A DNA stretch of 64,000 nt from Elusimicrobiota bacterium (GCA_003452935.1 DMMY01000016.1:142009-206008); one strand, 5' to 3'. Positions 21,496-59,486 are shown, counted from the stretch's first letter. Numbers and translations: made by a program. Notes: a model not told the origin generated them from the letters alone.

Positions 21496-21521
21496 AAGTC
21501 GGGATCATCCTGCAGGCGCGC

Positions 21522-23167: not shown

Positions 23168-23168
23168 T

Positions 23169-35768: not shown

Positions 35769-35877
35769 GCTGCCCTTAAAACCAATCCAGGTAATTTGAC
35801 AGGATGGAACATCGTCAGACGGACAATATGTTTCGCAAAACAAGTTATTTGAGGATTAAAAAAGACATCTAGCCGCC

Positions 35878-39425: not shown

Positions 39426-39586
39426 TATGGAGGTTGAGTGTGTGGCATCCTCCATCCACTACGACAAACTGCTACAATTTCAGCTGCGAGTCCAGCAATA
39501 TCCAATCATGCAGTGAACCTTTCCATATATAAAGTCCGCGGCATGTTATTGCGCGCAATCGGGATTTAATTGGACTCATCATACCC

Positions 39587-42323: not shown

Positions 42324-44242
42324 CAGGGGAGTTAAGTTTCGACGCCCCGGTCAGCGCCCAAGCGCTGCGGTGCATGACCACGGCAATCACCCATCGCGGG
42401 CCTGATGATGAGGGGTTGTATTGCGAGGGACGAATAGGCCTCGGTCACCGGCGGCTATCGATCATCGACATCTCATCTGCCGGACACCAGCCTATGTGGA
42501 CGGAAGATCGCTCCCTCGCCATCATCTTCAATGGGGAAGTCTATAACTACCGCGAAATTCGCCCAGACCTCGAAAAAAACGGCTACCACTTCCGCAGCAA
42601 CTCAGACACTGAAGTTGTCCTTAACGCCATTCACTGTTGGGGGCTGGAGAAAGCGCTCAAGCGCTTCATCGGCATGTTCGCCTTCGCCGTGTGGGACTCT
42701 CGAGACCGGACACTTTGGCTGGCACGGGATCGGGTGGGGATAAAACCGCTTTATTACCACATATCCAGGCAACGCTTTTTATTCGGCTCAGAACTCAAGG
42801 CCCTTTATGCTCACCCGTTCTTCCAACGCGACCTTTTGCCAAAAGGCTTGGCCCAGTATTTCTGTTTCGGTTATACCCTAGGTGGAACCACGGTCTACAA
42901 AGACACCTACAAACTGCCCGCAGGGCACTATCTGCGCGTTGCTCAGGGCGGCCAGATTTCATTGACACGCTTCTGGAGCCTCGACCACATTGAAAGAGGA
43001 TCATTCCGCGGCACGTTTGAAGAAGCCTCGGAACAGCTGACCGCTTTATGCGACAGCGCTTTCGCATACCGGTTGGTGTCGGATGTGCCGGTGGGAGTAT
43101 TTCTCTCCGGGGGCATCGACTCCGCCTTTTTAGCGGTATTTTTAAAAAAACGCTTGGGCGTCGATCTGGAGCACATCTCCATCGGCTTCAACGATCCTGC
43201 TTACGATGAAACCTCAAAGGCCGTCACGGTGGCGCAGGATATCGGCCTGCGTCACGCGACAAAGACTCTCGACGCGCGCGAATCCCAAGACGCCCTGCAC
43301 CGCTTCGTTGAAATATGGGATGAGCCTTTTGGCGACACTTCAGGGATACCTATGCACATCCTCTGCGGCCTGGCGCGACAGAAAGTCAAGGTGGCCCTCT
43401 CCGCCGACGGAGGCGACGAGCTGTTCTGCGGCTATGAGAGCTATCCGGCTTACGATGCCCGCTACCGTTGCCTGCAACGATTCCCTCTGCCATTACGCAG
43501 GGCGGCCGCCGAGGTCCTGCGCCTCTTGCCCTACCGCACGCTGATTTCAACAGGACTTCGCGGCCAGACTGATTCTTGCTGGAATCCTCAAGCTATCGCC
43601 CGTTACGAAAAAGCGATAGAACTATTGCAGACGACAGGGGCGGAAGATGCAACCCGGGTCATAAACGAAAAGGGCTGGACCGCGGGGGCCGTCGCGAAGC
43701 TCCTAGGCCTCAGCCATTGCGACGCAATTTCAGGAACCGTCTTCGAAGAATCATTCAAGGACAGAGGACGCGGAGCTTTCATTGACCACATGATGCGCAC
43801 GGATCTGGCCGCTTTTCTAGGCGAGGACATTCTGACAAAGGTGGATCGCGCCTCGATGGCCGCATCCCTTGAGTGCCGGGATCCCTTCCTTGACCATCGA
43901 TTGATCGAGTTCTCTTTTTCTCTCCCGCTCAACTATCTCTATGATCACGGAGAACACAAACGCATCCTCAAGAAAATAATTCGTCCCTGGATCTCTCCGT
44001 CGGTTCTTAACGCCCCGAAAAGAGGCTTCTCCATCCCCCTTTACAATTGGATGAGAGGCCCCTGGAAGCCGCTAGTCGACGAATATCTTTCTCCAAGCAA
44101 GATTCGCCGCATTGGAGTATTGAATGATCGAGCGGTCAAGCGGGAATTGGACGACTTCTACCAATATCGGGGCTGCCGCGCCGAAAAAATCATGCTGCTG
44201 CTTAATTTTCAAATGTGGGCGGAACGATGGCTGCGATCCTGA
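42311..44242 (+). CDS. Asparagine synthetase B-like glutamine amidotransferase (PseA/WbpS-type) no. 1
   Basis: N-terminal MCGIAG nucleophile; SGGIDSAF PP-loop. Confidence 0.85.
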   Translation: MCGIAGELSFDAPVSAQALRCMTTAITHRGPDDEGLYCEGRIGLGHRRLSIIDISSAGHQPMWTEDRSLAIIFNGEVYNYREIRPDLEKNGYHFRSNSDTEVVLNAIHCWGLEKALKRFIGMFAFAVWDSRDRTLWLARDRVGIKPLYYHISRQRFLFGSELKALYAHPFFQRDLLPKGLAQYFCFGYTLGGTTVYKDTYKLPAGHYLRVAQGGQISLTRFWSLDHIERGSFRGTFEEASEQLTALCDSAFAYRLVSDVPVGVFLSGGIDSAFLAVFLKKRLGVDLEHISIGFNDPAYDETSKAVTVAQDIGLRHATKTLDARESQDALHRFVEIWDEPFGDTSGIPMHILCGLARQKVKVALSADGGDELFCGYESYPAYDARYRCLQRFPLPLRRAAAEVLRLLPYRTLISTGLRGQTDSCWNPQAIARYEKAIELLQTTGAEDATRVINEKGWTAGAVAKLLGLSHCDAISGTVFEESFKDRGRGAFIDHMMRTDLAAFLGEDILTKVDRASMAASLECRDPFLDHRLIEFSFSLPLNYLYDHGEHKRILKKIIRPWISPSVLNAPKRGFSIPLYNWMRGPWKPLVDEYLSPSKIRRIGVLNDRAVKRELDDFYQYRGCRAEKIMLLLNFQMWAERWLRS

Positions 44243-45348
44243 TTTCATCCTCAAACAACGAGCTTCTATCTAACGCGCAGATCCATCGTTTGCTCGGACT
44301 CCAGGTGGCAAAAGACATCTTGGGCGCCACCGAGGATTCCAGTCCCGCGGAGGTCGGCCCCCTCTCCAACAACTATTATTCCTTCACTTTCTCGGTCAAA
44401 GCCAGAACTCACTCTGGATCGGACGATGTATTCATCAAGATCCCCAAGGCCGATATGCGCGGCATGGTTCCCAGGATACTCCCGCTGACCTTGGAAGACC
44501 GTAGGATGGCGCAAGAGGAGGAGTCCAGCCTCAGATTATTGGCCCAAAAATGGAACGCCAAAGAACAGGAAGTGCTCTGGGTCAACCTTCGCGGGACAGT
44601 CCCCGAATATAACGCCCTCGTCACCGATCGCATCTTCGCGGATGAGGCATTGCCGGCATTCCGACGGTTCGACATTCTCCGGAGATTAGGGTTTCAAGAA
44701 TATGCTCAGCGCCTGCAACGTCAGATGGCTCGCATGGGTGCGGCTTTGGGGCGCTTTCACCAAGCCAATCGCAGACCGCTTATTTTCCGATTGAATGAGG
44801 CTTTGCCAAAACTGGGATTCTACTGTCAGGACATTGCCGCCAGAAGCGGAAGCGCCTGGCCGCTTGAAATTTTACGGATACTGGATTCCATGGCAGACTT
44901 GGAGCTATCCGGGATTGAAGTCCCGACTCTCAAAGGAATTGATATCCGCAACATGTTGATTGGCAAACAGGATAGAATATATTTATTGGACCCCGGAAAA
45001 ACCAAGCCGACTCATCGAGAAGCCGACCTTGCCCGATTCATAATGACTTATCGCATTCTATATTGGGGGAGCTTGAAGTTGCTCCTATTGCGAGAGCCCG
45101 ATCCCAGGGGAGAGTCCGCTTTTCTTAAAGCCTACTACGCCAACAGCAGTCCTCCCAACCCAAGGATGCTTGACCTATTCTTGCTCAAAGAACTGCTCAA
45201 GCATTGGCAAACCGCACTGGTTTCGTTGCAGCGGCTGAATTGGTCGGCGGCGCGAAAACGATTGGCCGCATGGATATATGTCCATCCTTTTTACACGCGC
45301 CAAATTGCGGCGCAACTCGAAGTCATTTCGAACCATCATATGCCATGA
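44215..45348 (+). CDS. Hypothetical protein with a kinase-like (APH/WaaP-type) catalytic loop
   Basis: GIDIRNMLIGKQDRIYLLDPGKT resembles the DxxxxN ... D catalytic/DFG loops of phosphotransferases; otherwise unassigned. Confidence 0.3.
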   Translation: MGGTMAAILISSSNNELLSNAQIHRLLGLQVAKDILGATEDSSPAEVGPLSNNYYSFTFSVKARTHSGSDDVFIKIPKADMRGMVPRILPLTLEDRRMAQEEESSLRLLAQKWNAKEQEVLWVNLRGTVPEYNALVTDRIFADEALPAFRRFDILRRLGFQEYAQRLQRQMARMGAALGRFHQANRRPLIFRLNEALPKLGFYCQDIAARSGSAWPLEILRILDSMADLELSGIEVPTLKGIDIRNMLIGKQDRIYLLDPGKTKPTHREADLARFIMTYRILYWGSLKLLLLREPDPRGESAFLKAYYANSSPPNPRMLDLFLLKELLKHWQTALVSLQRLNWSAARKRLAAWIYVHPFYTRQIAAQLEVISNHHMP

Positions 45349-46019
45349 TAGATTATGAAAATGGCACATTGAATGCCTACCGCACCACAGCCAGGGCAGC
45401 GGAATACAAAAGGTACCACACCAAGGGATGGACGTGGGGCCGATTAGTTACATGCATCGAACAGCGGGCCATCGCTCGGGAATTAGGGCGCTATCAATGG
45501 TCGGCATCGGACCAGTTGCTGGATATTCCTTGCGGAACGGGCATAATGGGCAGAATACTCCATCGATTTCCTTTCAAGATCGTGGCGAGCGATATTTCAC
45601 CCGAGATGATGGCCATGGCGCGAGCGGAGTATCCCCCAGACAGGTTGCTCGCCTGCGTTCAGGCCGACATCACAAATACGCCCTTTCCGCGCGGGTCGTT
45701 CGCTTGCGTCGTCGCCTTAGGCTTTCTCCATCGAGTGCCAATTCCCATCAAGCGCGCTGCCTTGCGCGAAATCGCCGCCTTATCGAATAGGCTTGTCATC
45801 GTGTCCTGCAGCGTAGACACTCCCCTGCAACGCCTCAAGCACGTCCTTCTGCGCCGTCTCAAACGCGGCCATATTGCGGCGCCATGCCCCATGCCGTTCA
45901 AGGACATCCTCTCAGAATGCCTGTCTCATGGATTGAGGCTGAACCGAGCCTTTATGGTGATCCCGATGCTATCGTCTCACGCGGTCTTTATTTTAGAAAA
46001 GGTCGATTTACATGATTAA
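45345..46019 (+). CDS. Class I SAM-dependent methyltransferase
   Basis: LLDIPCGTGIMG motif I. ATG at 45345 overlaps the upstream stop (ATGA). Confidence 0.7.
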   Translation: MIDYENGTLNAYRTTARAAEYKRYHTKGWTWGRLVTCIEQRAIARELGRYQWSASDQLLDIPCGTGIMGRILHRFPFKIVASDISPEMMAMARAEYPPDRLLACVQADITNTPFPRGSFACVVALGFLHRVPIPIKRAALREIAALSNRLVIVSCSVDTPLQRLKHVLLRRLKRGHIAAPCPMPFKDILSECLSHGLRLNRAFMVIPMLSSHAVFILEKVDLHD

Positions 46020-46031
46020 CACCCGACTAGC

Positions 46032-47954
46032 ATGTGCGGAATAGCCGGGCTTTTTTCTCGCGCGCCGCGCCGGCACGAGCCCCTCTTATCGAGCGCCTCA
46101 GCCATGGTGCGCGCAATCCGTCATCGCGGGCCCGACGGCGAGGGAATTTGGACCGACCCTCGGGGGCATACGGCATTGGGCCACGCCCGACTGGCCATCA
46201 TTGATGTGACAGAAACCGGCAAGCAACCCATGATCTCCCGAGACGGGAATTTCGTCCTGACCCTAAATGGCGAGATTTACAATTACGTTGAACTGCGCCG
46301 CGAGCTTCTCCAGGCAGGATTAAAGCTTCGCGGAACGTCCGATACCGAGGTACTGCTCGAAGCCATGGCTCATTGGGGCATCGAAAGCACACTGGCGCGC
46401 TCACGCGGCATGTTCGCCATGGCAGTTTGGGATATCGAAAGACAATGCCTTTGGCTCGCGCGCGATCGCGTCGGCAAAAAGCCCCTTTACTTCTACGATC
46501 ACGCCGACACCTTTATGTTCGCATCAGAAATCAAAGGCTTGCTGGCCGCGCCAGACGTCCAGGTCACTATTTCACAGCAATCACTCTCTGATTATCTATC
46601 GCTCGGATTCATCCTGGGCTCCGACACAATCTATCGCGAAATATCGGAAGTGCGGCCCGGCACGCTGATAAAAGTCGGGATAGGACTCCAAACTCGACAA
46701 GAGAGCGTCTATTGGCGGTTTCCTGCCCAAACAGCCCGCATCCTAGCGCCGGAGGAAATACAGGAAGAAACGGAAAAACGGCTCAGCGATGCCGTTCGCC
46801 TAAGATTACGCGCGGATGTGCCCGTCGGCGTATTCCTGTCCGGGGGCATAGACAGCGGCCTGATCACCGCCTTCGCCGCGACACAGTCCAGAGAGCCGAT
46901 CCATTCCTTCACTGTCGCGTTCAGCACTTCCACCTTTGACGAATCCAGGCTCGCGCGTTTGGTCGCCCAACGCTACGCGACCATCCATCATGAAATTTAC
47001 CTTAACCCCGACCTTGAGGAACTGCTCCCCAAGGTGGTGCGAACCTATGACGAACCTTTCGCGGATCCGTCAGCCTTGCCTACTTACGCTATTTCTGGCG
47101 AGGCGGCAAAGCGCGTCAAGGTCGTTCTCAACGGCGAAGGCGCCGATGAATTATTCGGTGGCTACAGGCGCGTTTTCGCGATGCGCTGGCTCGCAAAAAT
47201 CGACCATCTCCTGCGCAAATTTCCGCCCAACACTCTAAGATCGATTGCGGACGCCTTGCCGCGGCCGAGGGGGTTCCGCAGCGCATATTCATTCCTGCAC
47301 CGCTTCGCCAGGGCGGCGCAAGCCGATTCCGCGACCCGTTATCTTTTATGGTCTTCGGATGGTTTCGATCATGACGAGAAACAGCGACTCGGCCTGATCG
47401 GCGCGAAAGACTCTACTCGTCCCACGGCGCAAGCCTTAAGAGATTGCCTCGCTTCCTACAAGACCTTGCCGGCATTATCCGAATTCATGGCGTTCGATTT
47501 TCTCGTTGGAATGGCCGATTGCCTTCTCCCCAAGATAGATATGGCCACCATGGCGCATGGCTTGGAGGGGAGATCCCCTTTCCTGGACCAGGAAGTCGTT
47601 GAATGGGCGGCTGGAATCGACAAATCAGCGCTTCTCGCCGGCTGGAAAACCAAACCGGTTCTACGCGCCATTGCAAGTCGCCATTTGCCGTCCGCAGTGA
47701 CGCGCGCGCCGAAGCGGGGGTTTGAGATTCCCCTGGTACAGTGGATGAAACACGATCTGCACGCCATGGCGCATGATATCTGCGCGTCGCGAGACAGCAT
47801 CCTATTCGACCTATTCGATCGTCGAGAGGTGCTGGCCGTTCTAAATCGTCAAGTTCTCATGGATGATGAGCGCTGGGCCAAGCGCATGTGGACGCTCCTA
47901 ATGCTCGCTTACTGGGGGAGGTGCGCTCATGAAGATCGCTTGCATTGCGCCTGA
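46032..47954 (+). CDS. Asparagine synthetase B-like glutamine amidotransferase no. 2
   Basis: MCGIAGLFS; SGGIDSGL PP-loop. Confidence 0.85.
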   Translation: MCGIAGLFSRAPRRHEPLLSSASAMVRAIRHRGPDGEGIWTDPRGHTALGHARLAIIDVTETGKQPMISRDGNFVLTLNGEIYNYVELRRELLQAGLKLRGTSDTEVLLEAMAHWGIESTLARSRGMFAMAVWDIERQCLWLARDRVGKKPLYFYDHADTFMFASEIKGLLAAPDVQVTISQQSLSDYLSLGFILGSDTIYREISEVRPGTLIKVGIGLQTRQESVYWRFPAQTARILAPEEIQEETEKRLSDAVRLRLRADVPVGVFLSGGIDSGLITAFAATQSREPIHSFTVAFSTSTFDESRLARLVAQRYATIHHEIYLNPDLEELLPKVVRTYDEPFADPSALPTYAISGEAAKRVKVVLNGEGADELFGGYRRVFAMRWLAKIDHLLRKFPPNTLRSIADALPRPRGFRSAYSFLHRFARAAQADSATRYLLWSSDGFDHDEKQRLGLIGAKDSTRPTAQALRDCLASYKTLPALSEFMAFDFLVGMADCLLPKIDMATMAHGLEGRSPFLDQEVVEWAAGIDKSALLAGWKTKPVLRAIASRHLPSAVTRAPKRGFEIPLVQWMKHDLHAMAHDICASRDSILFDLFDRREVLAVLNRQVLMDDERWAKRMWTLLMLAYWGRCAHEDRLHCA

Positions 47955-49140: not shown

Positions 49141-49221
49141 GCCCCAAAGCCTCGAAATTTTCACATTGGCCACGGCCCCTCAATATTGCACAATATCCAG
49201 AAACGGATTTGAGAAAATCCA

Positions 49222-49828
49222 AATGAAAAGAGCTTTAGACTTGGCCTTAGCCTGTTCCGGCCTCCTGTTCTGCGCACCTATCATGCTCGCCATCACGCTA
49301 GTCCAAAAACTAAGCTCCCCAGGCCCTTTGCTCTATCGCGGGAGCCGGGTGGGAAAAAATGGCCGCAGATTCAGCATCCTCAAGTTCCGAACCATGGTCG
49401 TCAACGCTGAAAAAATTGGCGGGTCCTCAACCTCCGATAGCGATCCCCGGATCACCTCAATGGGCAGGTTTCTGCGGCGATGGAAGCTGGATGAATTGCC
49501 CCAACTTTGGAACGTGATCACCGGGGACATGAGCCTTGTCGGCCCCCGCCCGCAGGTCGAACACGATGTTGCCCAGTACTCGGAGGATGAGAAAAAAATT
49601 CTTACGGTTCGCCCGGGAATCACAGACTGGTCTTCGATCAAGTTCCGCAATGAAGGAGCAATTTTGGCGAAATATCCGGATCCGGATCAAGCCTACATCG
49701 AGCAAATTCGTCCGGAGAAAATTCGTCTGCAGATGCTCTATATCCGCGAGATGTCCTTTTTGGGCGATTTAGAAATACTCTGGGCGACCATCGTCGCATT
49801 ATTCGGAGCAGAGGTCAAACTGCCATGA
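49222..49828 (+). CDS. Initiating sugar-phosphate transferase (PglC/WbaP C-terminal-domain type, 'bacterial sugar transferase')
   Basis: MKRALDLALACSGLLFCAPIMLAI TM helix, then LYRGSRVGKNGRRFSILKFRTM ... GDMSLVGPRP. Start trimmed to the ATG at 49222. Confidence 0.8.
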
Positions 49829-50559
49829 AACCCTTAAAAACCAAAGCCGAAGAGCTGGCGGGGCCGCAAATCGCCAAATTATTCGAGATCTCTTGCGATC
49901 CACTCCAGGTCAAGCTGGAAAACGCCCCAAAGTACTTCAGGCGCAAGACCATGACCCGATTGCTGGCCCTCTATGAGATTTTCAAGCAAATCTTAGATGT
50001 TAAGGGATCCATTATAGAATGCGGGATTCATAGAGGTTTCGGCCTCATGAGTTGGGCCCAATTCAGCGCCGTTTTGGAACCCGCGAACCTCACTCGCCGA
50101 ATCTACGGATTCGACAGCTTCGAAGGTTTCACCCAAGTCCATCAGCATGATAAGAACACCCGCCTAAATCCCAAAAGAGGGGGGCTAAGAGCCGATTGCC
50201 ACCAGGAACTAACTCAACTCATCAAGGTTTACGATTCCGACCGCTTCCTTGGGCATGTGGACAAGGTTCACATGATCAAAGGCGACGCGACGAAAACGAT
50301 TCCCGATTTTCTATCAAAAAACAGGCATCTTATGGTCAGCCTTCTATTTCTGGACTTCGATTTATATGAGCCAACCAAAGTAGCCATTCAACAATTCTTG
50401 CCACGCATGCCGAAAGGCGCTGTCCTGGCCTTTGATGAACTCGACAACCCCATCTGGCCCGGCGAGACGCAGGCTGCCCTAGAAGCAATAGGTCTCAGCC
50501 AGCTCAAAATCCGCAGGTTGCCGTGGGATCCCTACATAGGTTATGCCCTCCTTGACTAA
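49825..50559 (+). CDS. TylF/MycF-family O-methyltransferase (class I SAM MTase)
   Basis: GIHRGFGLM...GDATKTIPDFL...LLFLDFDLYEPT blocks characteristic of macrocin-O-MTase-like sugar methyltransferases. Confidence 0.6.
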   Translation: MKPLKTKAEELAGPQIAKLFEISCDPLQVKLENAPKYFRRKTMTRLLALYEIFKQILDVKGSIIECGIHRGFGLMSWAQFSAVLEPANLTRRIYGFDSFEGFTQVHQHDKNTRLNPKRGGLRADCHQELTQLIKVYDSDRFLGHVDKVHMIKGDATKTIPDFLSKNRHLMVSLLFLDFDLYEPTKVAIQQFLPRMPKGAVLAFDELDNPIWPGETQAALEAIGLSQLKIRRLPWDPYIGYALLD

Positions 50560-51388
50560 CGCATTGAATCCCACTGTCGCGAGTTGTCAGGTCTTTGCCA
50601 AGAACCTCAGACTAACCGCCCTGCGTATGGTTCATGCGGCCAAAAGCGCTCATGCCGGGGGCTCTCTTTCAATAGCAGACCTCTTGGCAGCCCTCTATGG
50701 AGGCGTTCTTCGCGTCGATTCAAAACGACCAGACAGCCCGGATCGCGACCGATTCATTTTAAGCAAAGGGCACGCCTGCGCAGCGTTTTATGCCGCGCTT
50801 GCATTCCGCGGTTTTTTCCCCATGGAATGGCTTGATACCTTTTATCAGAATGGAGGACGCTTGGCCGGCCATGCCACCCACTCGGGCGTCCCAGGGGTAG
50901 AGTTCTCCACCGGATCGCTCGGCCACGGCCTATCGGTAGCGACCGGGATGGCCCTAACGGGCAAACGCGACGGCGCCCCCTGGAGGGTATTCGCCCTTCT
51001 TTCGGATGGGGAATGCGACGAAGGTTCAACCTGGGAGCCGGCCCTCTTCGCCCCGCATCACCGGCTAGACAACCTGGTCGCGATCATCGATTACAACAAG
51101 ATTCAAAGCCTAGGACACACGAAGGAAGTGCTCGACCTCGATCCTTTCGCCGAGAAATGGCGGGCATTCGGATGGGCGGTCCAAGAGATTGACGGCCACG
51201 ACATGAGCAAAATCATCGCCGCCCTCACAACGATTCCTTTTACGCAAGGGAAACCGTCCTGTCTGATCGCCCATACGGTCAAAGGCAAAGGTGTCAGTTT
51301 CATGGAAGACAAGCTCCTCTGGCACTACCGCAACCCATCGACCGAGGAATACCAGGCAGCCATAATCGAGATTGAAAAAATGCCATGA
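50543..51388 (+). CDS. Transketolase, N-terminal (ThDP pyrophosphate-binding) subunit
   Basis: GHAGGSLSIADLLAAL ... LSKGHA ... GSLGHGLSVATGMAL ... SDGECDEG. Confidence 0.85.
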   Translation: MPSLTNALNPTVASCQVFAKNLRLTALRMVHAAKSAHAGGSLSIADLLAALYGGVLRVDSKRPDSPDRDRFILSKGHACAAFYAALAFRGFFPMEWLDTFYQNGGRLAGHATHSGVPGVEFSTGSLGHGLSVATGMALTGKRDGAPWRVFALLSDGECDEGSTWEPALFAPHHRLDNLVAIIDYNKIQSLGHTKEVLDLDPFAEKWRAFGWAVQEIDGHDMSKIIAALTTIPFTQGKPSCLIAHTVKGKGVSFMEDKLLWHYRNPSTEEYQAAIIEIEKMP

Positions 51389-52317
51389 GAACAGCATTTT
51401 TCAAGACGCTCGAAGAATTGGCGGCTAAAGAACCAAGAATAAACCTCATCACCGGCGACCTCGGCTTCACCGTCGTTGAACCTTACGCGGAGCGCTTTCC
51501 GCTGCAATTCCTCAACGCAGGAGTAGCCGAGCAAAACATGACGGGACTGGCGGTGGGGATGGCTCTGTCAGGCAAGATCGTCTTCACTTATTCGATAGCC
51601 AATTTCCCTACCCTGCGATGCATCGAGCAGATTCGCAACGACGCCTGCTATCACAAGGCGAATGTGAAGGTCACATGCGTGGGAGGCGGGCTCGCCTATG
51701 GGGCGCTGGGCAGTTCCCATCAAGCCACCGAGGACATCGCTATCATGCGCTCGCTTCCAGGCATGACCGTCGTCGCTCCGGGCGACCCCGTCGAAGCGGA
51801 ACAAGCCACCCGCGCCATCGCGGCGTTCGATGGCCCCTGCTATCTGCGTCTCGGCAAAGCCGGAGAACCTCCCGTCCACCGCGACCCCATCGATTTTAAA
51901 CTTGGGAAAGCCATTCGGGTTCGCGACGGCAAGGACATCACGATCATATCGACAGGAGGCATGCTTCACCCATGCTTTGAGGCAGCCAGCCAACTGGAGC
52001 AAGCCGGTTTGTCCGCGCGGCTTCTCAGCATGCACACAATCAAGCCTATCGATGTCCAGTCGGTCCTATCCGCCGCGCAAGAGACTTCAGCGATCCTGAC
52101 GGTTGAAGAGCACTCGGTGATCGGCGGGCTGGGCAGCGCGGTGGCCGAAATTCTCGCGCAGCAAAGTTCCCGCCGGATAGAATTCCGAATCATGGGACTG
52201 CCCGACCAGTTCTGCCGGACCGTAGGCAGCCAGGACTACCTCAGGCAAGCCTTCAAGCTGTCGCCAGAAGCCATCAAACTCGCAGCCACCGAACTGATTC
52301 GAAGAACCGATGAATAA
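51385..52317 (+). CDS. Transketolase, C-terminal (pyrimidine-binding) subunit
   Basis: LNAGVAEQNMTGLAVGMALSGKIVF ... GALGSSHQATEDIAIMRSLPGMTVVAPGDPVE. Confidence 0.85.
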   Translation: MRTAFFKTLEELAAKEPRINLITGDLGFTVVEPYAERFPLQFLNAGVAEQNMTGLAVGMALSGKIVFTYSIANFPTLRCIEQIRNDACYHKANVKVTCVGGGLAYGALGSSHQATEDIAIMRSLPGMTVVAPGDPVEAEQATRAIAAFDGPCYLRLGKAGEPPVHRDPIDFKLGKAIRVRDGKDITIISTGGMLHPCFEAASQLEQAGLSARLLSMHTIKPIDVQSVLSAAQETSAILTVEEHSVIGGLGSAVAEILAQQSSRRIEFRIMGLPDQFCRTVGSQDYLRQAFKLSPEAIKLAATELIRRTDE

Positions 52318-53449
52318 TATCCCGCGCCGCCTTGACGCATACCGAGTACCTTTCGTCAAACCAAAGGAGCACTACCTGAGGCTGAAGCCAGAAATCGACG
52401 GCGCCTTTATAGGGTGCCTCAAAAACGGCGATCTCATCCACCGCCAGCAGCTTCTCGATTTTGAAAAGCACTTGTCCGCCTATGTTGGGACAAAATACGC
52501 CATCGGCCTAGCCAGCGGCTACCACGCGCTGCTTTTCGGACTTATGGCCGCCAAAGTCGGCCCGGGAGACGAAGTTATTACCGTGGCGCATACATTTGCC
52601 GCGTCGGTCTCGGCCATCGTGCACACCGGCGCCAAGCCTGTATTAATCGACGTCCAGGACGATTTCAACATGGACGTCACCCAACTCAAGACCGCGTTGA
52701 GCAACCGCACGAAAGCTATCATGCCGGTTCATCTCAACGGCAGGCTTTGCGATATGGACCAAGTGATGGACTTCGCCGACAAGCACCGCCTGGCAGTCAT
52801 CGAAGACGCCTGCCAGGCTTTGGGCGCAACACATGGAGGCACCATGGCGGGAGCCTTCGCCACGGGGTGCTTCAGTTTCTATCCCTTCAAATCCCTTGGC
52901 GGTTTCGGCGACGGAGGCGCCTTAACCACGAACGACCCGGATGTCGCACGCTTTGCCACCCTGATGCGCTACAATGGAGAGGACCGGGCGACGGGAGATT
53001 TCTTCTATCACGGACACACCGCGTTGCTCGACAACGTCCAAGCCGCCGTGCTTGACGTAAAGCTGCGGCATTTTCCAGCATGGCTCGAGCATCGCCGCGA
53101 GATAGCCGCCATCTACAGCAAGGGCCTTGCCGGCATCCCCGGCCTTAGCACCCCCCGCATCGACGGCGGCAAAAATCGCGACGCATGTCAGAACTACGTT
53201 ATCCGAACCGTCCAGAGAGACTCCTTGCGCGCGCATCTGACTGCAGCGGGAATCGAGACCCTTGTCAGTTGGCCAAAACCACTGTGGGAACACGCAGGGC
53301 TCAGTCTCGGGAAACCGAATCTTCCAAAAACCAAGGCCATCTGCCAAGAAGTTTTATCATTGCCGCTATGCGCCGAAACCACCCACGAAGAAACGCAGTT
53401 CGTCATAGACAGCATCCGGAGCTTTACAAGCCAATGCCCCTCGCCTTAA
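52310..53449 (+). CDS. DegT/DnrJ/EryC1/StrS-family PLP-dependent sugar aminotransferase (PseC-like)
   Basis: AIMPVHLNGRLCDMDQVMDFADKHRLAVIEDACQALGA ... FSFYPFKSLGGFGDGGAL. Confidence 0.85.
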   Translation: MNNIPRRLDAYRVPFVKPKEHYLRLKPEIDGAFIGCLKNGDLIHRQQLLDFEKHLSAYVGTKYAIGLASGYHALLFGLMAAKVGPGDEVITVAHTFAASVSAIVHTGAKPVLIDVQDDFNMDVTQLKTALSNRTKAIMPVHLNGRLCDMDQVMDFADKHRLAVIEDACQALGATHGGTMAGAFATGCFSFYPFKSLGGFGDGGALTTNDPDVARFATLMRYNGEDRATGDFFYHGHTALLDNVQAAVLDVKLRHFPAWLEHRREIAAIYSKGLAGIPGLSTPRIDGGKNRDACQNYVIRTVQRDSLRAHLTAAGIETLVSWPKPLWEHAGLSLGKPNLPKTKAICQEVLSLPLCAETTHEETQFVIDSIRSFTSQCPSP

Positions 53450-54591
53450 GCCGGCGTTGCGACCGATCCGTTCAATCGGAAATACGCGCCATGTCGGTGG
53501 AATGCGAGCAATTAGCCGGATTAAACCTCGCCCAAGGGGTGTGCGACACGCCCATCCCAACGCCCGTTTGTCTGGGCGCGCAAAGAGCAGTTGGCGATGG
53601 GATCAACAGCTATACTCGTTTCGACGGGCTCATCGAACTACGCTGCGCCATCGCTCAAAAATTGCGTCGTTACAACGCGATCTCGGCAGACCCGGAATCC
53701 GGCATCGTCGTCAGCTGCGGATCAACCGGTTCTTTTTATGCGGCCTGTTTGGCTCTCCTTAATCCCGGCGATGAAGTCCTCCTTTTTGAGCCGTTTTACG
53801 GCTATCACCTCAATACCCTGCTCGCAGTCGAGGCCGTGCCTGCCTTTATCCGCATGCAAGCGCCGGGATGGACCTTCGCCAAGGCGGACATCGAGAAAGC
53901 GATCACGCGCAAGACGCGAGCCATCGTGGTCAACACTCCAAGCAATCCATCGGGAAAAGTATATACTCGGCAAGAACTCCAGTGGATCGCGGATGTGGCG
54001 GAAAAACACGATCTCTTTGTGCTTACTGACGAAATCTACGAATATATTCTTTATGAAAACCGCAAGCACCTAAGCCCGGCATGCCTGCCCGGCATGGCGG
54101 AACGCACCATCACGATCTCCGGATTCTCGAAGACTTTCAGCATCACGGGCTGGAGAATCGGCTACAGCGCGTGCCACGCAAAATGGGCGCAAATGATCGG
54201 ATATATGAGCGACCTGATCTACGTCTGCGCCCCGGCCCCTCTGCAGGCCGGCGTGGCGCGTGGACTCGCTGAGCTCGGGGATGACTACTACGATAGCCTC
54301 CGCAAAGACTTCGAGCGCAAGCGATCGGTGATTTGCGCGGCGCTCGACAAGGCAGGATTGACTCCCTGCACGCCACAAGGCGCATACTATGTCCTCGCAG
54401 ATATCAACCGTTTGCCCGGGAAGACCGGCAAGGAACGGGCGATGCATCTCTTGCGGTCTATCGGCGTGGCATGCGTTCCGGGAGAGGCTTTCTTTCACAA
54501 TGGCCAAGATGGCGCGGGCATGGGACGCTTCTGCTTCGCCAAGACCGATGAAGAACTTGAGGATGCGTGCAGACGGCTAGCGCGATTATGA
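53426..54591 (+). CDS. Class I/II PLP-dependent aminotransferase (AspAT-like fold)
   Basis: VVNTPSNPSGKV ... SGFSKTFSITGWRIGY lysine-motif region. Start trimmed to MPLALSRRC (ATG ~53426), overlapping the DegT 3' end. Confidence 0.7.
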
Positions 54592-55355
54592 ACGATCACG
54601 ATTTTTCGACGGTTACGGAAATTCCCGGGAATAAAGCATCCCTCGAGCAGTTGTCCATGATCCACACGCGATATCGATTGGCATATGATTTTTGCGCCGA
54701 CAAGGACGTGCTCGAAGCGGCTTGCGGCCCAGGGCGAGCGTTGGGTTATCTGGCGCAAAAAGCGCGATCCGTCGTCGGAGGAGACCTTTCCCAGAACCTG
54801 GTCGATCTCGCCAACCGCCACTATGGAGGGAGAATTTCAGTTGTACGAATGGACGTCCAGGCAATGCCTTGGGCCGACCACAGTTTTGACGTAGTGATTC
54901 TCTACGAGGCCCTCTATTACCTGCCTGACGTAGACCGCTTCATAGCTGAAGCTCGTCGGATTTTGCGACCGGAAGGCGTACTTCTGCTGTGCACGCCAAA
55001 CTGTGAGTGGGAGGGATTTAATCCCAGTCCTTTCAGCCGTAAATATTTTTCAGCCTCAGAATTGCGCCTCTGGCTCGAAAAAGCAGGCTTTACCGTTCAG
55101 ATCAAGGCATGCTTTAAAGTCTCCCATGACACCTTAAAGCAAAAAGCAGTTTCTGCAGCACGCAAAGCCGCAGTGACGCTGGGACTTATTCCTAAAACGA
55201 TGAAAGGCAAGACGTTCCTCAAACGGCTTTTTTACGGGCAACTCTCCGAACTCGGACCAGAGATAGATACGACGGCGCCCGCCAAGGTGCCGGTGTCCGT
55301 GGAGCCCAGGCATCTCCCGAACTACAAGGTTCTCTATGCCATCGCCAAGCGATAA
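54588..55355 (+). CDS. Class I SAM-dependent methyltransferase (Methyltransf_11-like)
   Basis: LEAACGPGRALGYLA motif I. ATGA overlap with the upstream stop. Confidence 0.7.
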   Translation: MNDHDFSTVTEIPGNKASLEQLSMIHTRYRLAYDFCADKDVLEAACGPGRALGYLAQKARSVVGGDLSQNLVDLANRHYGGRISVVRMDVQAMPWADHSFDVVILYEALYYLPDVDRFIAEARRILRPEGVLLLCTPNCEWEGFNPSPFSRKYFSASELRLWLEKAGFTVQIKACFKVSHDTLKQKAVSAARKAAVTLGLIPKTMKGKTFLKRLFYGQLSELGPEIDTTAPAKVPVSVEPRHLPNYKVLYAIAKR

Positions 55356-56505
55356 CCTTGGTCCTGCCTTTCTTGTCATCCTGACCGCGTCTATGGCTTG
55401 CGCAGGGACGCCCCGAGGGCCAAAAGCGGCCTTGACACGATTCCCCATCGGAATTTACGGAGGAAATGACCCAAAGCATCTGGCACGGCTCAAGAGCGAT
55501 GGTTTCGACTCATTTCATTGCAGTTGGAAGGATTTTGACCGTCTAGCGGCCATGGCAAAAGAAGCCAAGCACCAAGGAATGCGGATGATCATTTCCCCAG
55601 ATGAAATCCGTCGAAAAGCATCCTCTCATATCCAGGAGTGGCCGGTTGATGCCTGGTACCTATTCGACGAACCAGATGTCCATCGGTTATCAAGCGCCAC
55701 TCTCCAAGGGATCTCCGAGCAAACCCGCTCGTGGGATCCAGAACGGCCACAGACATTCGTCATCGGGCAGGGATCTCCCACGAACGTCTACGGCCGGATC
55801 GGGGATATATTGATGATGGACTGGTATCCCGTTCCACACAGAGCGCCAGATTCCGTAGCGGATCAGATCGACCTCCTCATGAAGACGCTTCCAAAAGGGA
55901 AACCTTTCTGGATGGTAATCCAGGCATACGATTGGGCCGATGAGATAAAGGATCCAACCAAGATCAAGGGCCTGCGATTCCCGAACCGCCATGAAATCCG
56001 CTTCATGAGTTATATCGCCGTCATGCATGGGGCCCGGGGGCTTTTTTATTGCACTTTACTCAAGAAAGGAAAGACCCTTTTCGAATATCCGGAACTCTGG
56101 CAGGAAGTTTCCGTTGTCACTCGAGAAATAAGGGATATGCGTCCCGTCTTCGAACGAGGCAAGCGGGTACGGCTGCCATTCCCGCCAAACCCGGATGGCG
56201 TAGAGGCAAAGGCGTGGCGTTATAAGAACCGCGACCATGTCATCATCCTCAATCGCAAAGCCACCGTCTATCAGAAGGTTCCCGAGGAACTTTTCAATGG
56301 GCTATGGCAGCCGATCCACTGCGCAAAAAACAATTGTCGAGAGGCCCTCTCATCGTTTTATGGCGCTTGGTATCTGAGGCCCTATCACGTAATGGTTTTC
56401 AAGAGCCGGCTGAATTGGTTTCGGGGACTATCGCGGGGTTTGCCAATAGCGACCTCCTGTGACCAAGACGACACTCTAACCCGCAGTAGGCATTTGGTAA
56501 AATAA
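55336..56505 (+). CDS. Lipoprotein, putative TIM-barrel glycoside-hydrolase-like polysaccharide-processing protein (paralog 1, island GC)
   Basis: Lipobox LTASMAC. Shares FPIG, AWYLxDEPDV, GDILMxDWYPVPH, EIRFMxY and LPFPPNPDG..AKAWRY blocks with the ORF at 58377-59486. Confidence 0.35.
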   Translation: MPSPSDNLGPAFLVILTASMACAGTPRGPKAALTRFPIGIYGGNDPKHLARLKSDGFDSFHCSWKDFDRLAAMAKEAKHQGMRMIISPDEIRRKASSHIQEWPVDAWYLFDEPDVHRLSSATLQGISEQTRSWDPERPQTFVIGQGSPTNVYGRIGDILMMDWYPVPHRAPDSVADQIDLLMKTLPKGKPFWMVIQAYDWADEIKDPTKIKGLRFPNRHEIRFMSYIAVMHGARGLFYCTLLKKGKTLFEYPELWQEVSVVTREIRDMRPVFERGKRVRLPFPPNPDGVEAKAWRYKNRDHVIILNRKATVYQKVPEELFNGLWQPIHCAKNNCREALSSFYGAWYLRPYHVMVFKSRLNWFRGLSRGLPIATSCDQDDTLTRSRHLVK

Positions 56506-56514: not shown

Positions 56515-58431
56515 ATGCCAAAAATATTTTTTTCATATAAACGCCTCCTTATCATAGGCGCGGATGCGATGGCTTTTACGGTTTCTTACGCCCTAGCCTT
56601 TTTCCTGCGCTTTGATCTCCATATCCCTCTGAACCAACTAGCCAACTTTCTCGTCACCGTCTGGCTCGTGGTCGGCATCCGGCTGCTGACCTTCCTCTAC
56701 CTCGGCGCCTACGAAGGCGTCTGGCGCTACGCCAGCATCGCGGACCTCTCCACCCTCCTAAAAGCCATGGCCGCGAGCCAGGTCGTCATCACCGCCGCGG
56801 TCCTGTTCCTCCAGCACGCCAATTTTCCGCGCTCCACGCTCCTCATCGACGCCGCCTTGGCCCTCATCTTCGTCGGCCTCACCCGCTTCGGAATCCGCAT
56901 GACCCGCCAATGGCGCCAGCAAGGCCACCCACAGGACCTTCCCCGGCTGATCATCTTCGGCGCCGGGGATTTGGGGGAGACCATCGTGCGCGACATGCAA
57001 AGGCGCAAGCGCCCCACGCACAAAATCGTGGGCTTCGCCGACGACGATCACGCCAAATGGCGCATGCGCATCCACAACGTGCCCATCTTGGGAGGCCGCA
57101 AGGAACTGCCCAAGCTCATCGAGAAGCACGGCGTCGACGAGGTCGTAGTCGCGGTCAACCACTCGCGCGGACCCCTGATCCAGGACTTGATCGAGCTCTG
57201 CCGCAAGGAGCCGGGCCGCAAGGTCGAATTCAAGACCGTGCCCACCATCGAGGAGACCCTGCGCAGCGACCATACCCATCAAAAAGGCTTTCGCAGAATC
57301 GAGCTCTCGGACCTCTTGCGCCGCAAGCCCGTCGCCACCGACCTGGGAGCGGTCAAGAACCTCATCGCGGGCAAGACGGTCCTGGTCACGGGCGCGGGCG
57401 GGAGCATCGGCTCCGAGCTCTCGCGCCAGATATTGCGCTTCAAGCCATCCAAGCTGATCCTCCTGGAGAAGCACAACACGGCCCTTTTCTACATCGACCG
57501 GGAGCTCTGCGCGGTCAAGAACGGGACCTGCCTCGTGCCCGCGGCGGGAGACATCACGGACCCCGACCTCCTGGACAATCTCTTCGACGCGCACAAGCCC
57601 CAGCTCGTGTTCCACGCGGCCGCGCACAAGCACGTCTCGCTCATGGAGGCCAATCCCCAGGAGGCGGTCAAGAACAACACCATAGGCACCCATCTCCTGG
57701 CCGAGAAAGCGGCGCGCTACCACGCGGAACGCTTCCTGTTCATCTCCACGGACAAGGCGGTGCGGCCCACCAGCGTCATGGGCGTCTCCAAGCGCATGGC
57801 CGAGATGGTGATCCGGGCCCTGGCCCCGGCCGCAGAGACCAAGTTCCTGTCCGTGCGCTTCGGCAATGTCCTGGGCAGTTCCGGCAGCGCCGTCAACATC
57901 TTCAAGGAGCAGATCGCCCATGGCGGGCCGGTGACCGTGACGCATCCGGAGGTCACGCGCTACTTCATGACCACCCAGGAGGCGGTCGAGCTGATCCTTC
58001 AGGCCTGCTCCATGGGCAGCGGGGGGGAGATTTTCGTCTTGAACATGGGAGAGCCCGTAAAGGTGGCGGACGTCGCCCGCAACCTCATCCTCTTGTCGGG
58101 CCTGGAGCCGGACAAGGACATCAATATCGTCTACACGGGCCTGCGGCCGGGCGAGAAAATGTACGAGGAGCTTTTCCGGAGCAACGACGTGCGCCAGGAC
58201 ACGGGCCACCCGGACATATTCGCGGCCCTGCCCGAGGAGGCGGACCTCGCCATCCTGCGCAACCATATCGAGAGCCTGCGCGCGCTTTGCAGCCAGGCCG
58301 ACCCGGCGCCCCTGTTGCGCAAAATCCAGCAGCTCGTGCCCGCCTACACGCCTTCTGCCGTGCACGCGGCCCAACCATGCCCTTGCGACCAGCCATCAGC
58401 TATAGCCCCTGTCTCAGACTTGGCCTCCTAG
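56515..58431 (+). CDS. Membrane-anchored UDP-GlcNAc 4,6-dehydratase (WbpM/PglF/CapD family)
   Basis: N-terminal TM helices; KTVLVTGAGGSIGSEL Rossmann motif; full CapD-type architecture. Only the first ~100 nt are AT-rich; the rest is high GC. Confidence 0.85.
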   Translation: MPKIFFSYKRLLIIGADAMAFTVSYALAFFLRFDLHIPLNQLANFLVTVWLVVGIRLLTFLYLGAYEGVWRYASIADLSTLLKAMAASQVVITAAVLFLQHANFPRSTLLIDAALALIFVGLTRFGIRMTRQWRQQGHPQDLPRLIIFGAGDLGETIVRDMQRRKRPTHKIVGFADDDHAKWRMRIHNVPILGGRKELPKLIEKHGVDEVVVAVNHSRGPLIQDLIELCRKEPGRKVEFKTVPTIEETLRSDHTHQKGFRRIELSDLLRRKPVATDLGAVKNLIAGKTVLVTGAGGSIGSELSRQILRFKPSKLILLEKHNTALFYIDRELCAVKNGTCLVPAAGDITDPDLLDNLFDAHKPQLVFHAAAHKHVSLMEANPQEAVKNNTIGTHLLAEKAARYHAERFLFISTDKAVRPTSVMGVSKRMAEMVIRALAPAAETKFLSVRFGNVLGSSGSAVNIFKEQIAHGGPVTVTHPEVTRYFMTTQEAVELILQACSMGSGGEIFVLNMGEPVKVADVARNLILLSGLEPDKDINIVYTGLRPGEKMYEELFRSNDVRQDTGHPDIFAALPEEADLAILRNHIESLRALCSQADPAPLLRKIQQLVPAYTPSAVHAAQPCPCDQPSAIAPVSDLAS

Positions 58432-59486
58432 CGGCCTGCCTGCTGGGACTAAGCGCCTGCCAAGGGGGGGGGGCCTATTTCCCAATCGGATTATTCAACA
58501 CGGGAAATCCCAAGGACCTCCGGTCCATTAAAAAGGCCGGATTTAACGCGGTCCAGACTTACTCCCGCGACCCGGCGCAGCTCAAGGCCCTGGCCAAGGC
58601 CGCCGATAAAGCCGGCGTCAAGCTCCTGGCCCATCCCCAGGAGCTCTCGGCCTCGACCGTGCCCGTGCGCGGCTGGCCCATGGCGGCTTGGTATCTCGTC
58701 GACGAGCCCGACGTCAACGGCATGAGTCCGAGCGAGCTCTGCTACCTCGCCGGCAAGGTCAAGGCCTGGGCGCCCCGGATACCGGGCGCTTTCGTGGTCG
58801 GCGCCGGGGCCAAGGCCCGGGACTACGCGGCCTGCGGCGACATCCTCATGGTCGACTGGTACCCCGTGCCCCACATGCCCCTTGAATCCGCGGGAGAGAA
58901 CGTGCGCCTCACCGTCGAGGCCGCGGGCGACAAGCCGGTCTGGGCCGTGCTCCAGGCCATGAACTGGAAAGACTACGCCCAGCGCGATCCCAAAAAGCCG
59001 CGCGTCGGCAGATTCCCGACATACGGCGAGATACGCTTCATGACCTATCACTCCATCATCGCCGGGGCCAAGGGCGTATGGTACTTCTCATACGCCAAGC
59101 CCGGCGGCGCGACCCTGGCGCAAAGCCCGGAGGAATGGCTCGCCGTCACCGCCATGGCCAAGGAACTCGCCGCGCTTCGCCCCATCTTCGAGGGGGGAAC
59201 TCCCGCCTATCTTCCCTTCCCGCCCAACCCGGACGGCCCCCTGGCCAAGGCCTGGCGCTATCACGGCCGCGACTACGTCATCATCGCCAACCCCAAGCCC
59301 AAGGCCATGCAGCTCGTGCCCGAGGCGTTGCTCGCGATGCATTGGCGGCCGCTTTTCGAGACCAGGCGCTACCAGAAGGAGCTCTTGAAGAAGGTCGGGG
59401 AAGGCTTTTATCTGCCGCCCTACCGCGTCCTGGTCTTCGAAAGCCGCCTCTCCTGGCGCTCTTCCCGCCCCAAGACCTGGCCTTAA
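58377..59486 (+). CDS. Lipoprotein paralog 2 of the 55336 protein (host-like GC)
   Basis: Lipobox LLGLSAC. Same conserved blocks as paralog 1. Lies inside a long artefactual ORF (56910..59486); the real start is the ATG at 58377. Confidence 0.35.
   Translation: MPLRPAISYSPCLRLGLLAACLLGLSACQGGGAYFPIGLFNTGNPKDLRSIKKAGFNAVQTYSRDPAQLKALAKAADKAGVKLLAHPQELSASTVPVRGWPMAAWYLVDEPDVNGMSPSELCYLAGKVKAWAPRIPGAFVVGAGAKARDYAACGDILMVDWYPVPHMPLESAGENVRLTVEAAGDKPVWAVLQAMNWKDYAQRDPKKPRVGRFPTYGEIRFMTYHSIIAGAKGVWYFSYAKPGGATLAQSPEEWLAVTAMAKELAALRPIFEGGTPAYLPFPPNPDGPLAKAWRYHGRDYVIIANPKPKAMQLVPEALLAMHWRPLFETRRYQKELLKKVGEGFYLPPYRVLVFESRLSWRSSRPKTWP

Follow-up and report, generated by a model that had tools for sequence, protein, structure and literature searches.

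Branching of lipopolysaccharide sugars is known from YerE-like enzymes, members of the decarboxylase superfamily, according to a 2025 review of thiamine diphosphate (ThDP) enzymes that form tertiary alcohols (PMC12247030). For the split-gene transketolases (TKs) of miharamycin and amipurimycin, transfer of a hydroxyacetyl unit to a keto sugar has been proposed only and never assayed, and by the same review there is no structure of a ketone-accepting TK, nor has any TK been shown to couple carbon–carbon bonds onto a keto sugar; in its account of Krug et al., 13 further putative split TKs were found in silico, all in Streptomyces (PMC12247030). ThDP enzymes that take ketones, giving chiral tertiary alcohols, are sought as biocatalysts. 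Here, we describe a pair of TK subunit genes at positions 50,543–52,317 of a 64,000-nucleotide stretch of DNA from an Elusimicrobiota bacterium (GCA_003452935.1, DMMY01000016.1:142009-206008), the whole of which we call the window, and compare them with the functional class of ketone-accepting, sugar-branching ThDP enzymes—that is, YerE-like enzymes, alpha-KADH2 E1 pairs, and the proposed TKs. The pair is best filed under ThDP-dependent sugar branching by a distinct, widespread, and uncharacterised TK clade.

YerE and YerE-like enzymes (yersiniose and erwiniose synthesis, acting on CDP-3,6-dideoxy-4-keto-glucose) would share the role proposed here, namely ThDP-dependent carbon–carbon coupling to the C4 ketone of a nucleoside diphosphate (NDP)-6-deoxy-4-keto sugar, encoded in a surface-glycan locus. 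The two differ in fold and superfamily (TK versus decarboxylase/AHAS-like, which are unrelated), and the window enzyme would likely use a ketol or hydroxypyruvate rather than pyruvate as donor and a UDP-N-acetylhexosamine (UDP-HexNAc) derivative as acceptor. As far as the review describes them, the miharamycin and amipurimycin TKs and the 13 Streptomyces sequences share the proposed transfer of hydroxyacetyl onto a keto sugar, but they belong to Streptomyces secondary-metabolite clusters, whereas the window pair lies in a Wzx/Wzy-type Elusimicrobiota locus and its clade spans many phyla. Compared by gene annotation, the wps-2 exopolysaccharide (EPS) cluster of Actinoplanes missouriensis (AMIS_56700–56730), also a Wzx/Wzy cluster, has the same core order of S-adenosylmethionine (SAM) methyltransferase, TK N subunit, TK C subunit, and DegT, for which domain annotation was given and no function assigned (PMC13390465). 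The PglF–PglE–PglD–PglC pathway to di-N-acetylbacillosamine in Campylobacter jejuni has PglF-like, DegT-family, and PglC-like counterparts in the window operon, which differs from it in having no PglD, a DegT protein nearer to C3-aminotransferases, and a TK pair and two methyltransferases inserted. In the open-access literature, we found no publication describing the clade, its signature, its breadth, or its function.

A split transketolase-family enzyme with an altered pocket

The two open reading frames (ORFs) are adjacent and co-oriented, as in split-gene TKs, overlapping by 4 bp on the same strand:

50543–51388, plus strand: TK-N, transketolase-family alpha subunit with the ThDP diphosphate-binding (PP) domain; 281 aa; Pfam Transketolase_N 2.7e-45
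51385–52317, plus strand: TK-C, transketolase-family beta subunit with Pyr and C-terminal domains and a non-canonical acceptor pocket; 310 aa; Pfam Transket_pyr 1.8e-30, Transketolase_C 6.2e-29

All of the PP, Pyr, and C-terminal domains of canonical transketolase (EC 2.2.1.1) are present by Pfam, spread over the two ORFs. The original prediction of split N- and C-terminal TK subunits in this interval was therefore correct to the nucleotide, and domain profiles and gene layout together show the fold, family, and subunit pairing of a split transketolase-family ThDP enzyme. For both subunits, the nearest solved structure is the Carboxydothermus hydrogenoformans split transketolase 6YAK/6YAJ (268 and 224 bits, 49% and 43% identity), chain A of 6YAK being the best structural match of TK-N, and by analogy with 6YAK the window pair would form an alpha2beta2 heterotetramer. 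No second TK-like ORF was found in the 64-kb window. NCBI lists a protein of 100% identity from an Elusimicrobia metagenome-assembled genome.

Residues are numbered here as in human TK, from an alignment with human TK and 6YAK, and counts refer to 191 relatives for the N subunit and 39 for the C subunit. The four N-subunit histidines that surround the ketol donor in TK—His37, His77, His110, and His261, equivalent to H37, H77, H110, and H258 of human TK—are kept in 190–191 of the 191 family members. The ThDP/metal motif GDG-X(25-30)-N reads SDGE...DYN in the N subunit, its first Gly being Ser and its Asp invariant in the 191 relatives, and both E366, the cofactor-activating Glu, and a His at position 428 (the yeast H481 position) are kept in the window enzyme and in 39/39 C-subunit relatives. 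The substrate-phosphate ligands have largely gone. R318 is the sole survivor of four (R318, S345, H416, and R474) in the window enzyme: H416 is replaced by Gly there and in 39/39 relatives, R474 by Lys there and in 28/39 (Lys or Arg across the clade), and S345 by Thr at a position that varies (Ser, Thr, or Gly) among relatives. D424 (yeast D477), which in canonical TK hydrogen-bonds the acceptor C2-OH or donor C4-OH, is Leu in the window enzyme and 38 of the 39 relatives, and E423 is Ala, with Ala or Ser across relatives. The TK-C motif reads VGGGLAYGALGSSHQ where canonical 6YAK has THAGLTVGEDGASHQ. The window enzyme and 6YAK/6YAJ thus have in common their two-subunit architecture, all catalytic histidines, and the cofactor Glu, and differ in Gly for His416, Ala-Leu for Glu423–Asp424, Lys for Arg474, and a glycan operon versus a central-metabolism context. 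This non-canonical signature occurs in 120/120 closest homologs and, when 50%-identity clusters are each represented by one sequence, in nearly all of the best 150, the canonical THxG..GEDG appearing solely at the bottom of that list.

Judged by these residues, the pair is not an ordinary pentose-phosphate enzyme, as those for ordinary sugar-phosphate binding have been lost. It is nonetheless named as one: the two halves score 282 and 207 bits on the NCBIfam model NF004559 'transketolase', a sum of about 490 against a cut-off of 488 bits, so that profile-based annotation labels genes of this clade 'transketolase'. An ordinary TK riding in the island, either housekeeping or supplying precursors such as sedoheptulose-7-phosphate or pentose phosphates, would explain these top-scoring equivalog models, the database name of the protein ('transketolase'), and the identity with a biochemically active split TK. 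We regard this explanation as very improbable, given that throughout the clade other residues stand in for three of the four phosphate ligands and for the Asp that reads the acceptor C2-OH, that translation of the genes is coupled to that of sugar-nucleotide enzymes and their cassette is found again in more than 15 phyla, that members are plasmid-borne in two cultured bacteria, and that no heptose or Kdo pathway genes stand alongside the pair.

Other ThDP families fit less well. The halves score 33 and 150 bits on the DXS model TIGR00204 (cut-off 466) and at most 76 bits on 2-oxoacid dehydrogenase E1 models, placing the pair in neither family, and the TPP_enzyme_N/M/C domains of the AHAS/PDC-type three-domain fold of YerE-like lyases gave no match, TK-family domains alone being detected. 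These scores bear on a variant of the branching chemistry in which an NDP-4-keto sugar is C-branched from another donor, pyruvate or a different 2-oxo acid decarboxylated as by DXS, E1, or YerE, to leave an acetyl/1-hydroxyethyl or longer branch, with the class-I aminotransferase of the operon supplying the 2-oxo acid. The presence of that aminotransferase, the C subunit's scores for the DXS model (150 bits) and the pyruvate dehydrogenase E1-beta model (76 bits), the VGGG motif, which we read as resembling an E1-beta-type loop, and the lost phosphate ligands, which speak against ketose phosphates as donors, are all in its favor, and the YerE-like ErwE takes functionalised 2-oxo acids (PMC12247030). 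The N subunit, however, scores 155 bits on Transketolase_N versus 27 on DXP_synthase_N (Pfam). Retention of the four TK histidines is, moreover, hard to explain for a donor without a hydroxymethyl group; one of the four, His103 in yeast, is known from TK structural work to touch the ketol donor at its C1 hydroxyl. A 2-oxo-acid donor is consequently considered unlikely.

The split TK of the D-apiose catabolic cluster, for which the gene names AptA/AptB follow Carter et al. 2018 (PMC13001218), shares part of the altered pocket. The E. coli SE15 pair (ECSF_RS02710/02715), with 43% (A) and 35% (B) identity to the window proteins, likewise has Asp424→Leu and has lost His416. Its context is catabolic, with an FGGY kinase and an ABC transporter, whereas the window operon contains no kinase or transporter gene, and the window pair does not classify as an AptAB ortholog. 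In a neighbor-joining tree rooted on 6YAJ, the AptAB group formed a separate clade, sister to the glycan clade, and plasmid-borne relatives of about 41% identity in Rhizobiaceae and Croceibacterium adjoin FGGY kinases and sugar transporters. AptB-type members of Agrobacterium and Croceibacterium retain Arg318, Ser345, Glu423, and Arg474, which fits a phosphorylated substrate. Residues 318/345/416/474 read V/A/N/G in E. coli AptB (L089, 6230–7988), where the N-terminal part of the alignment is uncertain, and R/S/S/R in Agrobacterium and Croceibacterium (L087/L088).

Asp424→Leu was rejected as a mark of glycan function because the catabolic AptAB clade also carries it, and is now read, from the residue comparison, as a mark of ketone or tertiary-carbinol handling. 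AptAB reportedly cleaves apulose-4-phosphate, in which C3 is a tertiary carbinol, with release of a ketone (dihydroxyacetone phosphate). If this is right, loss of the Asp would mark TKs that handle ketones or tertiary alcohols, fitting a keto-sugar acceptor, and AptAB would be the sole assayed ketone-handling relative.

Operon organization and gene neighborhoods across phyla

From about 49.2 to 59.5 kb, all genes lie on the plus strand and either overlap or are less than 10 nt apart, in the order PglC-like, CalS11-like methyltransferase, TK-N, TK-C, DegT, class-I aminotransferase, Methyltransf_11, glycoside hydrolase (GH)-like, PglF-like dehydratase, and GH-like paralog. The genes other than the TK pair are:

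49220–49828, plus strand: small PglC-like phosphoglycosyl transferase (Bac_transf); Pfam Bac_transf 3.2e-59; NCBIfam EPS_sugtrans 225 bits, C-terminal half only; start approximate, the ORF opening at 49091
49825–50559, plus strand: TylF/CalS11-like SAM-dependent O-methyltransferase; Pfam TylF 1.1e-10, Methyltransf_24
52310–53449, plus strand: DegT/DnrJ/EryC1-type sugar-nucleotide aminotransferase; Pfam 6.7e-94
53434–54591, plus strand: class I (Asp/aromatic/kynurenine-type) amino-acid:2-oxoacid aminotransferase; 385 aa; Pfam Aminotran_1_2 2.9e-59; PDB 1dju/1gd9 217 bits
54567–55355, plus strand: Methyltransf_11-type SAM methyltransferase; Pfam 6.7e-23
55336–56505, plus strand: Elusimicrobia-specific protein with a GH-like fold and hydrophobic N-terminus; 389 aa; AlphaFold2 model, pLDDT 91
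56515–58431, plus strand: PglF/WbpM/CapD-like membrane-anchored UDP-GlcNAc 4,6-dehydratase; Pfam Polysacc_synt_2 6e-108, CoA_binding_3; NCBIfam PseB 158 bits
58440–59486 (about), plus strand: paralog of the GH-like protein, immediately 3' of the dehydratase gene; phmmer 3.4e-83 versus 55336–56505

The TK genes are translationally coupled to sugar-nucleotide enzymes, and the PglF-like dehydratase in the same operon is a predicted co-encoded source of NDP-4-keto-6-deoxy sugar, which it would supply as the 4-keto-6-deoxy sugar nucleotide. The best solved relative of the O-methyltransferase is CalS11, a TDP-rhamnose 3'-O-methyltransferase (155 bits, 3.7e-44), and it is predicted to act at the sugar-nucleotide level. 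The DegT protein, the sole member of its family found in the window, has 7b0d, DesV (2oga), QdtB, and WbpE as closest solved relatives (207–281 bits) and is nearer to the C3-aminotransferases among them (DesV, QdtB, and WbpE; 207–254 bits) than to PseC (91 bits), while PglE is absent from its matches; it is therefore not a plain PglE ortholog, which does not by itself prove an exocyclic site of action. The class-I aminotransferase begins at an ATG at 53434, overlapping the DegT stop by 16 nt, a start that matches its 385-aa homologs. The PglC-like transferase would load the finished sugar-1-phosphate onto undecaprenyl phosphate. A promoter and terminator scan of 46–60.5 kb yielded no operon boundaries, promoter-like sites not being enriched (11 versus 6.2 ± 3.2 expected) and terminator-like sites being fewer than expected.

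Related loci were sought in one genome per GTDB species, and gene context was analysed with ORFs called by a conservation-weighted caller (TK-C was called in 83 loci). At least 572 species-level genomes encode a relative from the clade, and more than 15 phyla have the cassette; the best 80 loci belong to Elusimicrobiota, Acidobacteriota, Chloroflexota, Planctomycetota, Desulfobacterota, Nitrospirota, Dormibacterota, Verrucomicrobiota, and Parcubacteria, among other groups. TK-N directly precedes TK-C in 75 of the 83 loci. Recurrent neighbors of the pair are PglC-like and PglF-like proteins, TylF-type methyltransferases, NTP-transferase/4,6-dehydratase genes, and TylC3-like C-methyltransferases. 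DegT is its most conserved partner, with a homolog immediately 3' of TK-C in 36 loci. A PglC-like homolog lies one to three genes upstream of the pair in 38 related loci, a TylF-type methyltransferase is present in 26 (mostly immediately 5' of TK-N), a cluster homologous to the Methyltransf_11 gene in 28, a PglF-like homolog in 21 (usually two to four genes 3' of TK-C), and the class-I aminotransferase in 16, 12 of them at position +2. Among the 65 loci untruncated next to the TK pair, DegT occurs within two genes in 39 and an NAD(P) oxidoreductase instead in 15 (together 54/65), usually with genes of an NDP-sugar 4,6-dehydratase pathway close by.

The cassette is conserved in several forms. 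Type A loci resemble the window (PglC, [TylF-MT], TKN, TKC, DegT, [class-I AT], [MT11], PglF), and metagenomic relatives with 79–84% identity have the same cassette of PglC, TylF-type methyltransferase, TKN, TKC, DegT, and class-I aminotransferase, followed by MT11 or a GFO-type oxidoreductase. In type B loci, an NTP-transferase, 4,6-dehydratase-type short-chain dehydrogenases/reductases (SDRs), and a TylC3-like C-methyltransferase or a sulfotransferase/kinase are followed by an SDR, TKN, TKC, and a GT2 glycosyltransferase. Type C comprises five Acidobacteriota loci (L011, L014, L018, L021, and L057) with the order E1alpha, E1beta, E2(lipoyl), TKN, TKC, and adh_short, of which L018 also has NDP-sugar genes nearby. 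This arrangement suggests that the ThDP intermediate has a second use or that two C-branching systems lie next to each other.

Type C loci also bear on the idea that the TK pair stands in for a missing PglD, acylating the 4-amino group of UDP-4-amino-4,6-dideoxy-HexNAc from acetyl-ThDP (formed by phosphoketolase-like dehydration) or glycolyl-ThDP. The module has PglF, DegT, and PglC homologs and no PglD-like acetyltransferase gene was found between 47.9 and 59.5 kb, the TK genes fill that slot, and the five loci link the pair to a lipoyl-E2 acyltransferase, an association reminiscent of the systems for glycolyl transfer in quinocarcin and naphthyridinomycin biosynthesis. We nevertheless give this idea little credence, because some loci with the pair have no aminotransferase at all, glycolyl transfer requires an oxidant that is not encoded in the window, and no phosphoketolase-specific features were identified in the pair, which scores 21 bits on the NCBIfam phosphoketolase model.

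Two cultured bacteria carry the pair on plasmids beside CDP-sugar genes. Plasmid pHY1 in Methylovirgula sp. HY1 has, in this order, rfbF, rfbG, SDR, rfbH, TKN, and TKC, annotated as glucose-1-phosphate cytidylyltransferase (rfbF), CDP-glucose 4,6-dehydratase (rfbG), and a 3-dehydrase (rfbH). The genes before the pair form the route to CDP-3,6-dideoxy-4-keto-hexose, the YerE acceptor in yersiniose synthesis, and by analogy the Methylovirgula split TK would stand roughly where YerE acts. The Paenibacillus cellulosilyticus plasmid NZ_CP054609.1 encodes rfbF, rfbG, a TylC3-like C-methyltransferase, an SDR::TK-N fusion, TK-C, a TylF/MycF/NovP O-methyltransferase, and a glycosyltransferase. The fusion (635 aa; locus L086, 7097–9004) joins an NDP-sugar-type epimerase/dehydratase SDR to Transketolase_N and is annotated just as 'SDR family NAD(P)-dependent oxidoreductase'. 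The TK-C proteins of both bacteria bear the non-canonical motif. The fusion, together with the way TylF-type methyltransferases accompany the TK in UDP- as well as CDP-sugar pathways, connects the enzyme with nucleotide-sugar chemistry, and its link to NDP-4-keto-sugar pathways is evident from these loci.

Proposed route and competing explanations

Because the cassette crosses phyla, the pocket is altered, plasmid-borne members lie in CDP-sugar operons, and TK-N is fused to an SDR, we consider it highly probable that the TK pair is a dedicated glycan-pathway enzyme. The original prediction had held that two-subunit TKs inside polysaccharide loci are associated with ketol transfer onto sugar nucleotides; its glycan-pathway part stands on the evidence above, whereas the association itself is not an established one, since such transfer by TKs has been proposed only and lipopolysaccharide branching is described from YerE-like enzymes only (PMC12247030). 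Transfer of a two-carbon ketol unit onto a keto sugar nucleotide is the best-fitting chemistry and is likely. In its specific form, with a hydroxyacetyl unit moved onto C4 of UDP-4-keto-6-deoxy-HexNAc, the new ketone then aminated and the sugar methylated, we favor it only slightly over its being wrong.

We infer the acceptor, donor, step order, and product as follows. The PglF-like dehydratase would convert UDP-GlcNAc to UDP-2-acetamido-2,6-dideoxy-hexos-4-ulose. The TK would then form dihydroxyethyl-ThDP from a ketol donor, likeliest hydroxypyruvate, possibly made from serine by the co-encoded class-I aminotransferase, with a ketose phosphate as the alternative; hydroxypyruvate is favored because the donor histidines are kept while the phosphate ligands and the C4-OH ligand are lost. 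Addition of the dihydroxyethyl unit to the C4 carbonyl would give a tertiary alcohol with a 4-C-hydroxyacetyl branch, whose side-chain ketone DegT would turn into an amine; in the sister loci of types B and C, an SDR, aldo-keto reductase, or GFO-type oxidoreductase would reduce that ketone instead. The CalS11-like and Methyltransf_11 enzymes would methylate the sugar (O- and possibly N-methylation), and the PglC-like transferase would finally attach it to undecaprenyl phosphate, making it the repeat unit's first residue. Decoration of the sugar by three methyltransferases and two radical-SAM enzymes had also been suggested; the TylF/CalS11-like and Methyltransf_11 genes do recur beside the TK pair, but the two radical-SAM genes and the third methyltransferase (45204–46019) are outside the conserved cassette.

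Several observations weigh against this route. By the NF004559 profile, the pair is still near genuine TKs. PglF, DegT, and PglC suffice on their own to produce and load a 4-amino-4,6-dideoxy-HexNAc of the AATGal or bacillosamine type, so that the adjacency of DegT is no proof that it acts on the TK product, and the DegT and oxidoreductase neighbors in 54/65 loci could equally act on the ring C4 ketone as on a new branch ketone. Neither an aminotransferase nor a reductase stands beside the pair in 11 of the 65 loci. The class-I aminotransferase is present in just about one quarter of full loci, which makes the idea of serine-to-hydroxypyruvate supply weak. The five loci with the pair behind E1alpha-E1beta-E2(lipoyl) hint at a different use of the ThDP intermediate, rfbF/G/H with an SDR could simply yield an ordinary 3,6-dideoxyhexose, and in the open-access literature we found no glycan structure with such a branch for these organisms.

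That self-sufficiency of PglF, DegT, and PglC also leaves room for a TK that never touches the nucleotide sugar and instead works alongside one aminotransferase or both to build a small substituent, amino-polyol or amino-acid-like, to be attached to the glycan later. The chemistry would first extend an aldehyde by a C2 unit and then transaminate the product, in the manner of AziC5/C6 in azinomycin biosynthesis. Two aminotransferases do directly follow the TK genes, one of them of the amino-acid/2-oxoacid rather than the sugar class, and both the window and several related loci have upstream AsnB-like amidotransferases that could join amines to uronic acids. However, conservation with the pair does not extend to any ligase, ATP-grasp, or acyltransferase gene; the class-I aminotransferase is missing from most loci, and the pair also occurs in CDP-sugar operons without any aminotransferase and fused to an NDP-sugar SDR. 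We thus view such a substituent pathway as improbable, if marginally less so than a 2-oxo-acid donor.

Returning to the branching route, we tentatively propose, at a little below even confidence, that the clade consists of widespread ketone-accepting TKs, a TK-fold counterpart of YerE that adds a hydroxyacetyl branch to NDP-4-keto-6-deoxy sugars, and that in the window, where the substrate would be a UDP-HexNAc, amination and methylation of the branched sugar would yield a 4-C-(1-amino-2-hydroxyethyl)-type sugar as the initiating residue of a surface glycan. If this is true, hundreds of candidate ketone-accepting TKs would be available versus 13 putative Streptomyces sequences (PMC12247030), three cultured carriers would be open for study, and a simple signature, His416→Gly and Asp424→Leu, would set the clade apart from housekeeping TKs given the identical annotation. 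It would also correct a routine mis-annotation that puts genes of the clade among the pentose-phosphate pathway enzymes when metabolism is reconstructed from metagenome-assembled genomes. Many environmental phyla would be predicted to make C-branched amino sugars at the reducing end of surface glycans, and with at least 572 species in more than 15 phyla, mostly uncultured, this would be a class of branched sugars that glycan chemists have yet to see.

The surrounding glycan island and glycoside-hydrolase-like paralogs

The TK pair lies inside a glycan island, as originally predicted. GC content is 0.49–0.58 from about 18 to 58 kb versus 0.61–0.66 in the flanks, with sharp steps at the ends (0.63 to 0.52 near 18 kb and 0.55–0.60 to 0.63 near 58–60 kb) that are consistent with horizontal acquisition. 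In this low-GC stretch are genes for Wza, Wzc, Wzy, Wzx, glycosyltransferases of GT2 and GT4, NeuB, a CMP-transferase, two radical-SAM proteins, AsnB-like amidotransferases, and several methyltransferases, and no heptose or Kdo pathway genes were found beside the TK pair.

At the start of the island (18483–24481) are Wza, a radical-SAM/SPASM enzyme, a NeuB-like synthase, a CMP-sugar cytidylyltransferase, a 322-aa protein without family match, WbqC, and a PIG-L deacetylase, which form a partial nonulosonic-acid-type module without an aminotransferase of its own. The mid-locus genes (33777–41071) encode a 663-aa protein without family match, an 875-aa BNR/sialidase-like repeat protein, a PorV/UPF0164-like outer-membrane protein, and a 494-aa protein without family match, and could be a glycan-processing or export accessory set. 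Between 42311 and 47954, AsnB-like amidotransferases (42311–44242 and 46032–47954) flank a 377-aa protein without family match and a methyltransferase; AsnB homologs also lie upstream of the TK cassette in the Acidobacteria/Desulfobacterota loci L007, L008, L015, L022, L036, L039, and L081.

The 389-aa GH-like protein (55336–56505) has no Pfam or NCBIfam match, and its paralog (58440–59486) no Pfam match. There are about 193 homologs of the former, all annotated 'hypothetical', and every named one is from Elusimicrobiota/Endomicrobia. Its AlphaFold2 model is a (beta/alpha)8 barrel with a beta-sandwich, for which Foldseek returned GH13, GH30, and GH5 structures (E down to 3e-12, TM about 0.5, 8%–14% identity), and invariant residues of the family include WY..DEP (107–113), D157, DWYP (162–165), and H168. 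The protein was considered as the missing acyltransferase and rejected, the model being a glycoside-hydrolase-like barrel with a hydrophobic N-terminus. Judging from the model, it is probably an extracytoplasmic glycan-processing enzyme, outside the nucleotide-sugar chemistry, and the two paralogs may represent an undescribed glycoside-hydrolase family tied to EPS loci. In the related locus L006, GH-like copies likewise stand on both sides of PglF.

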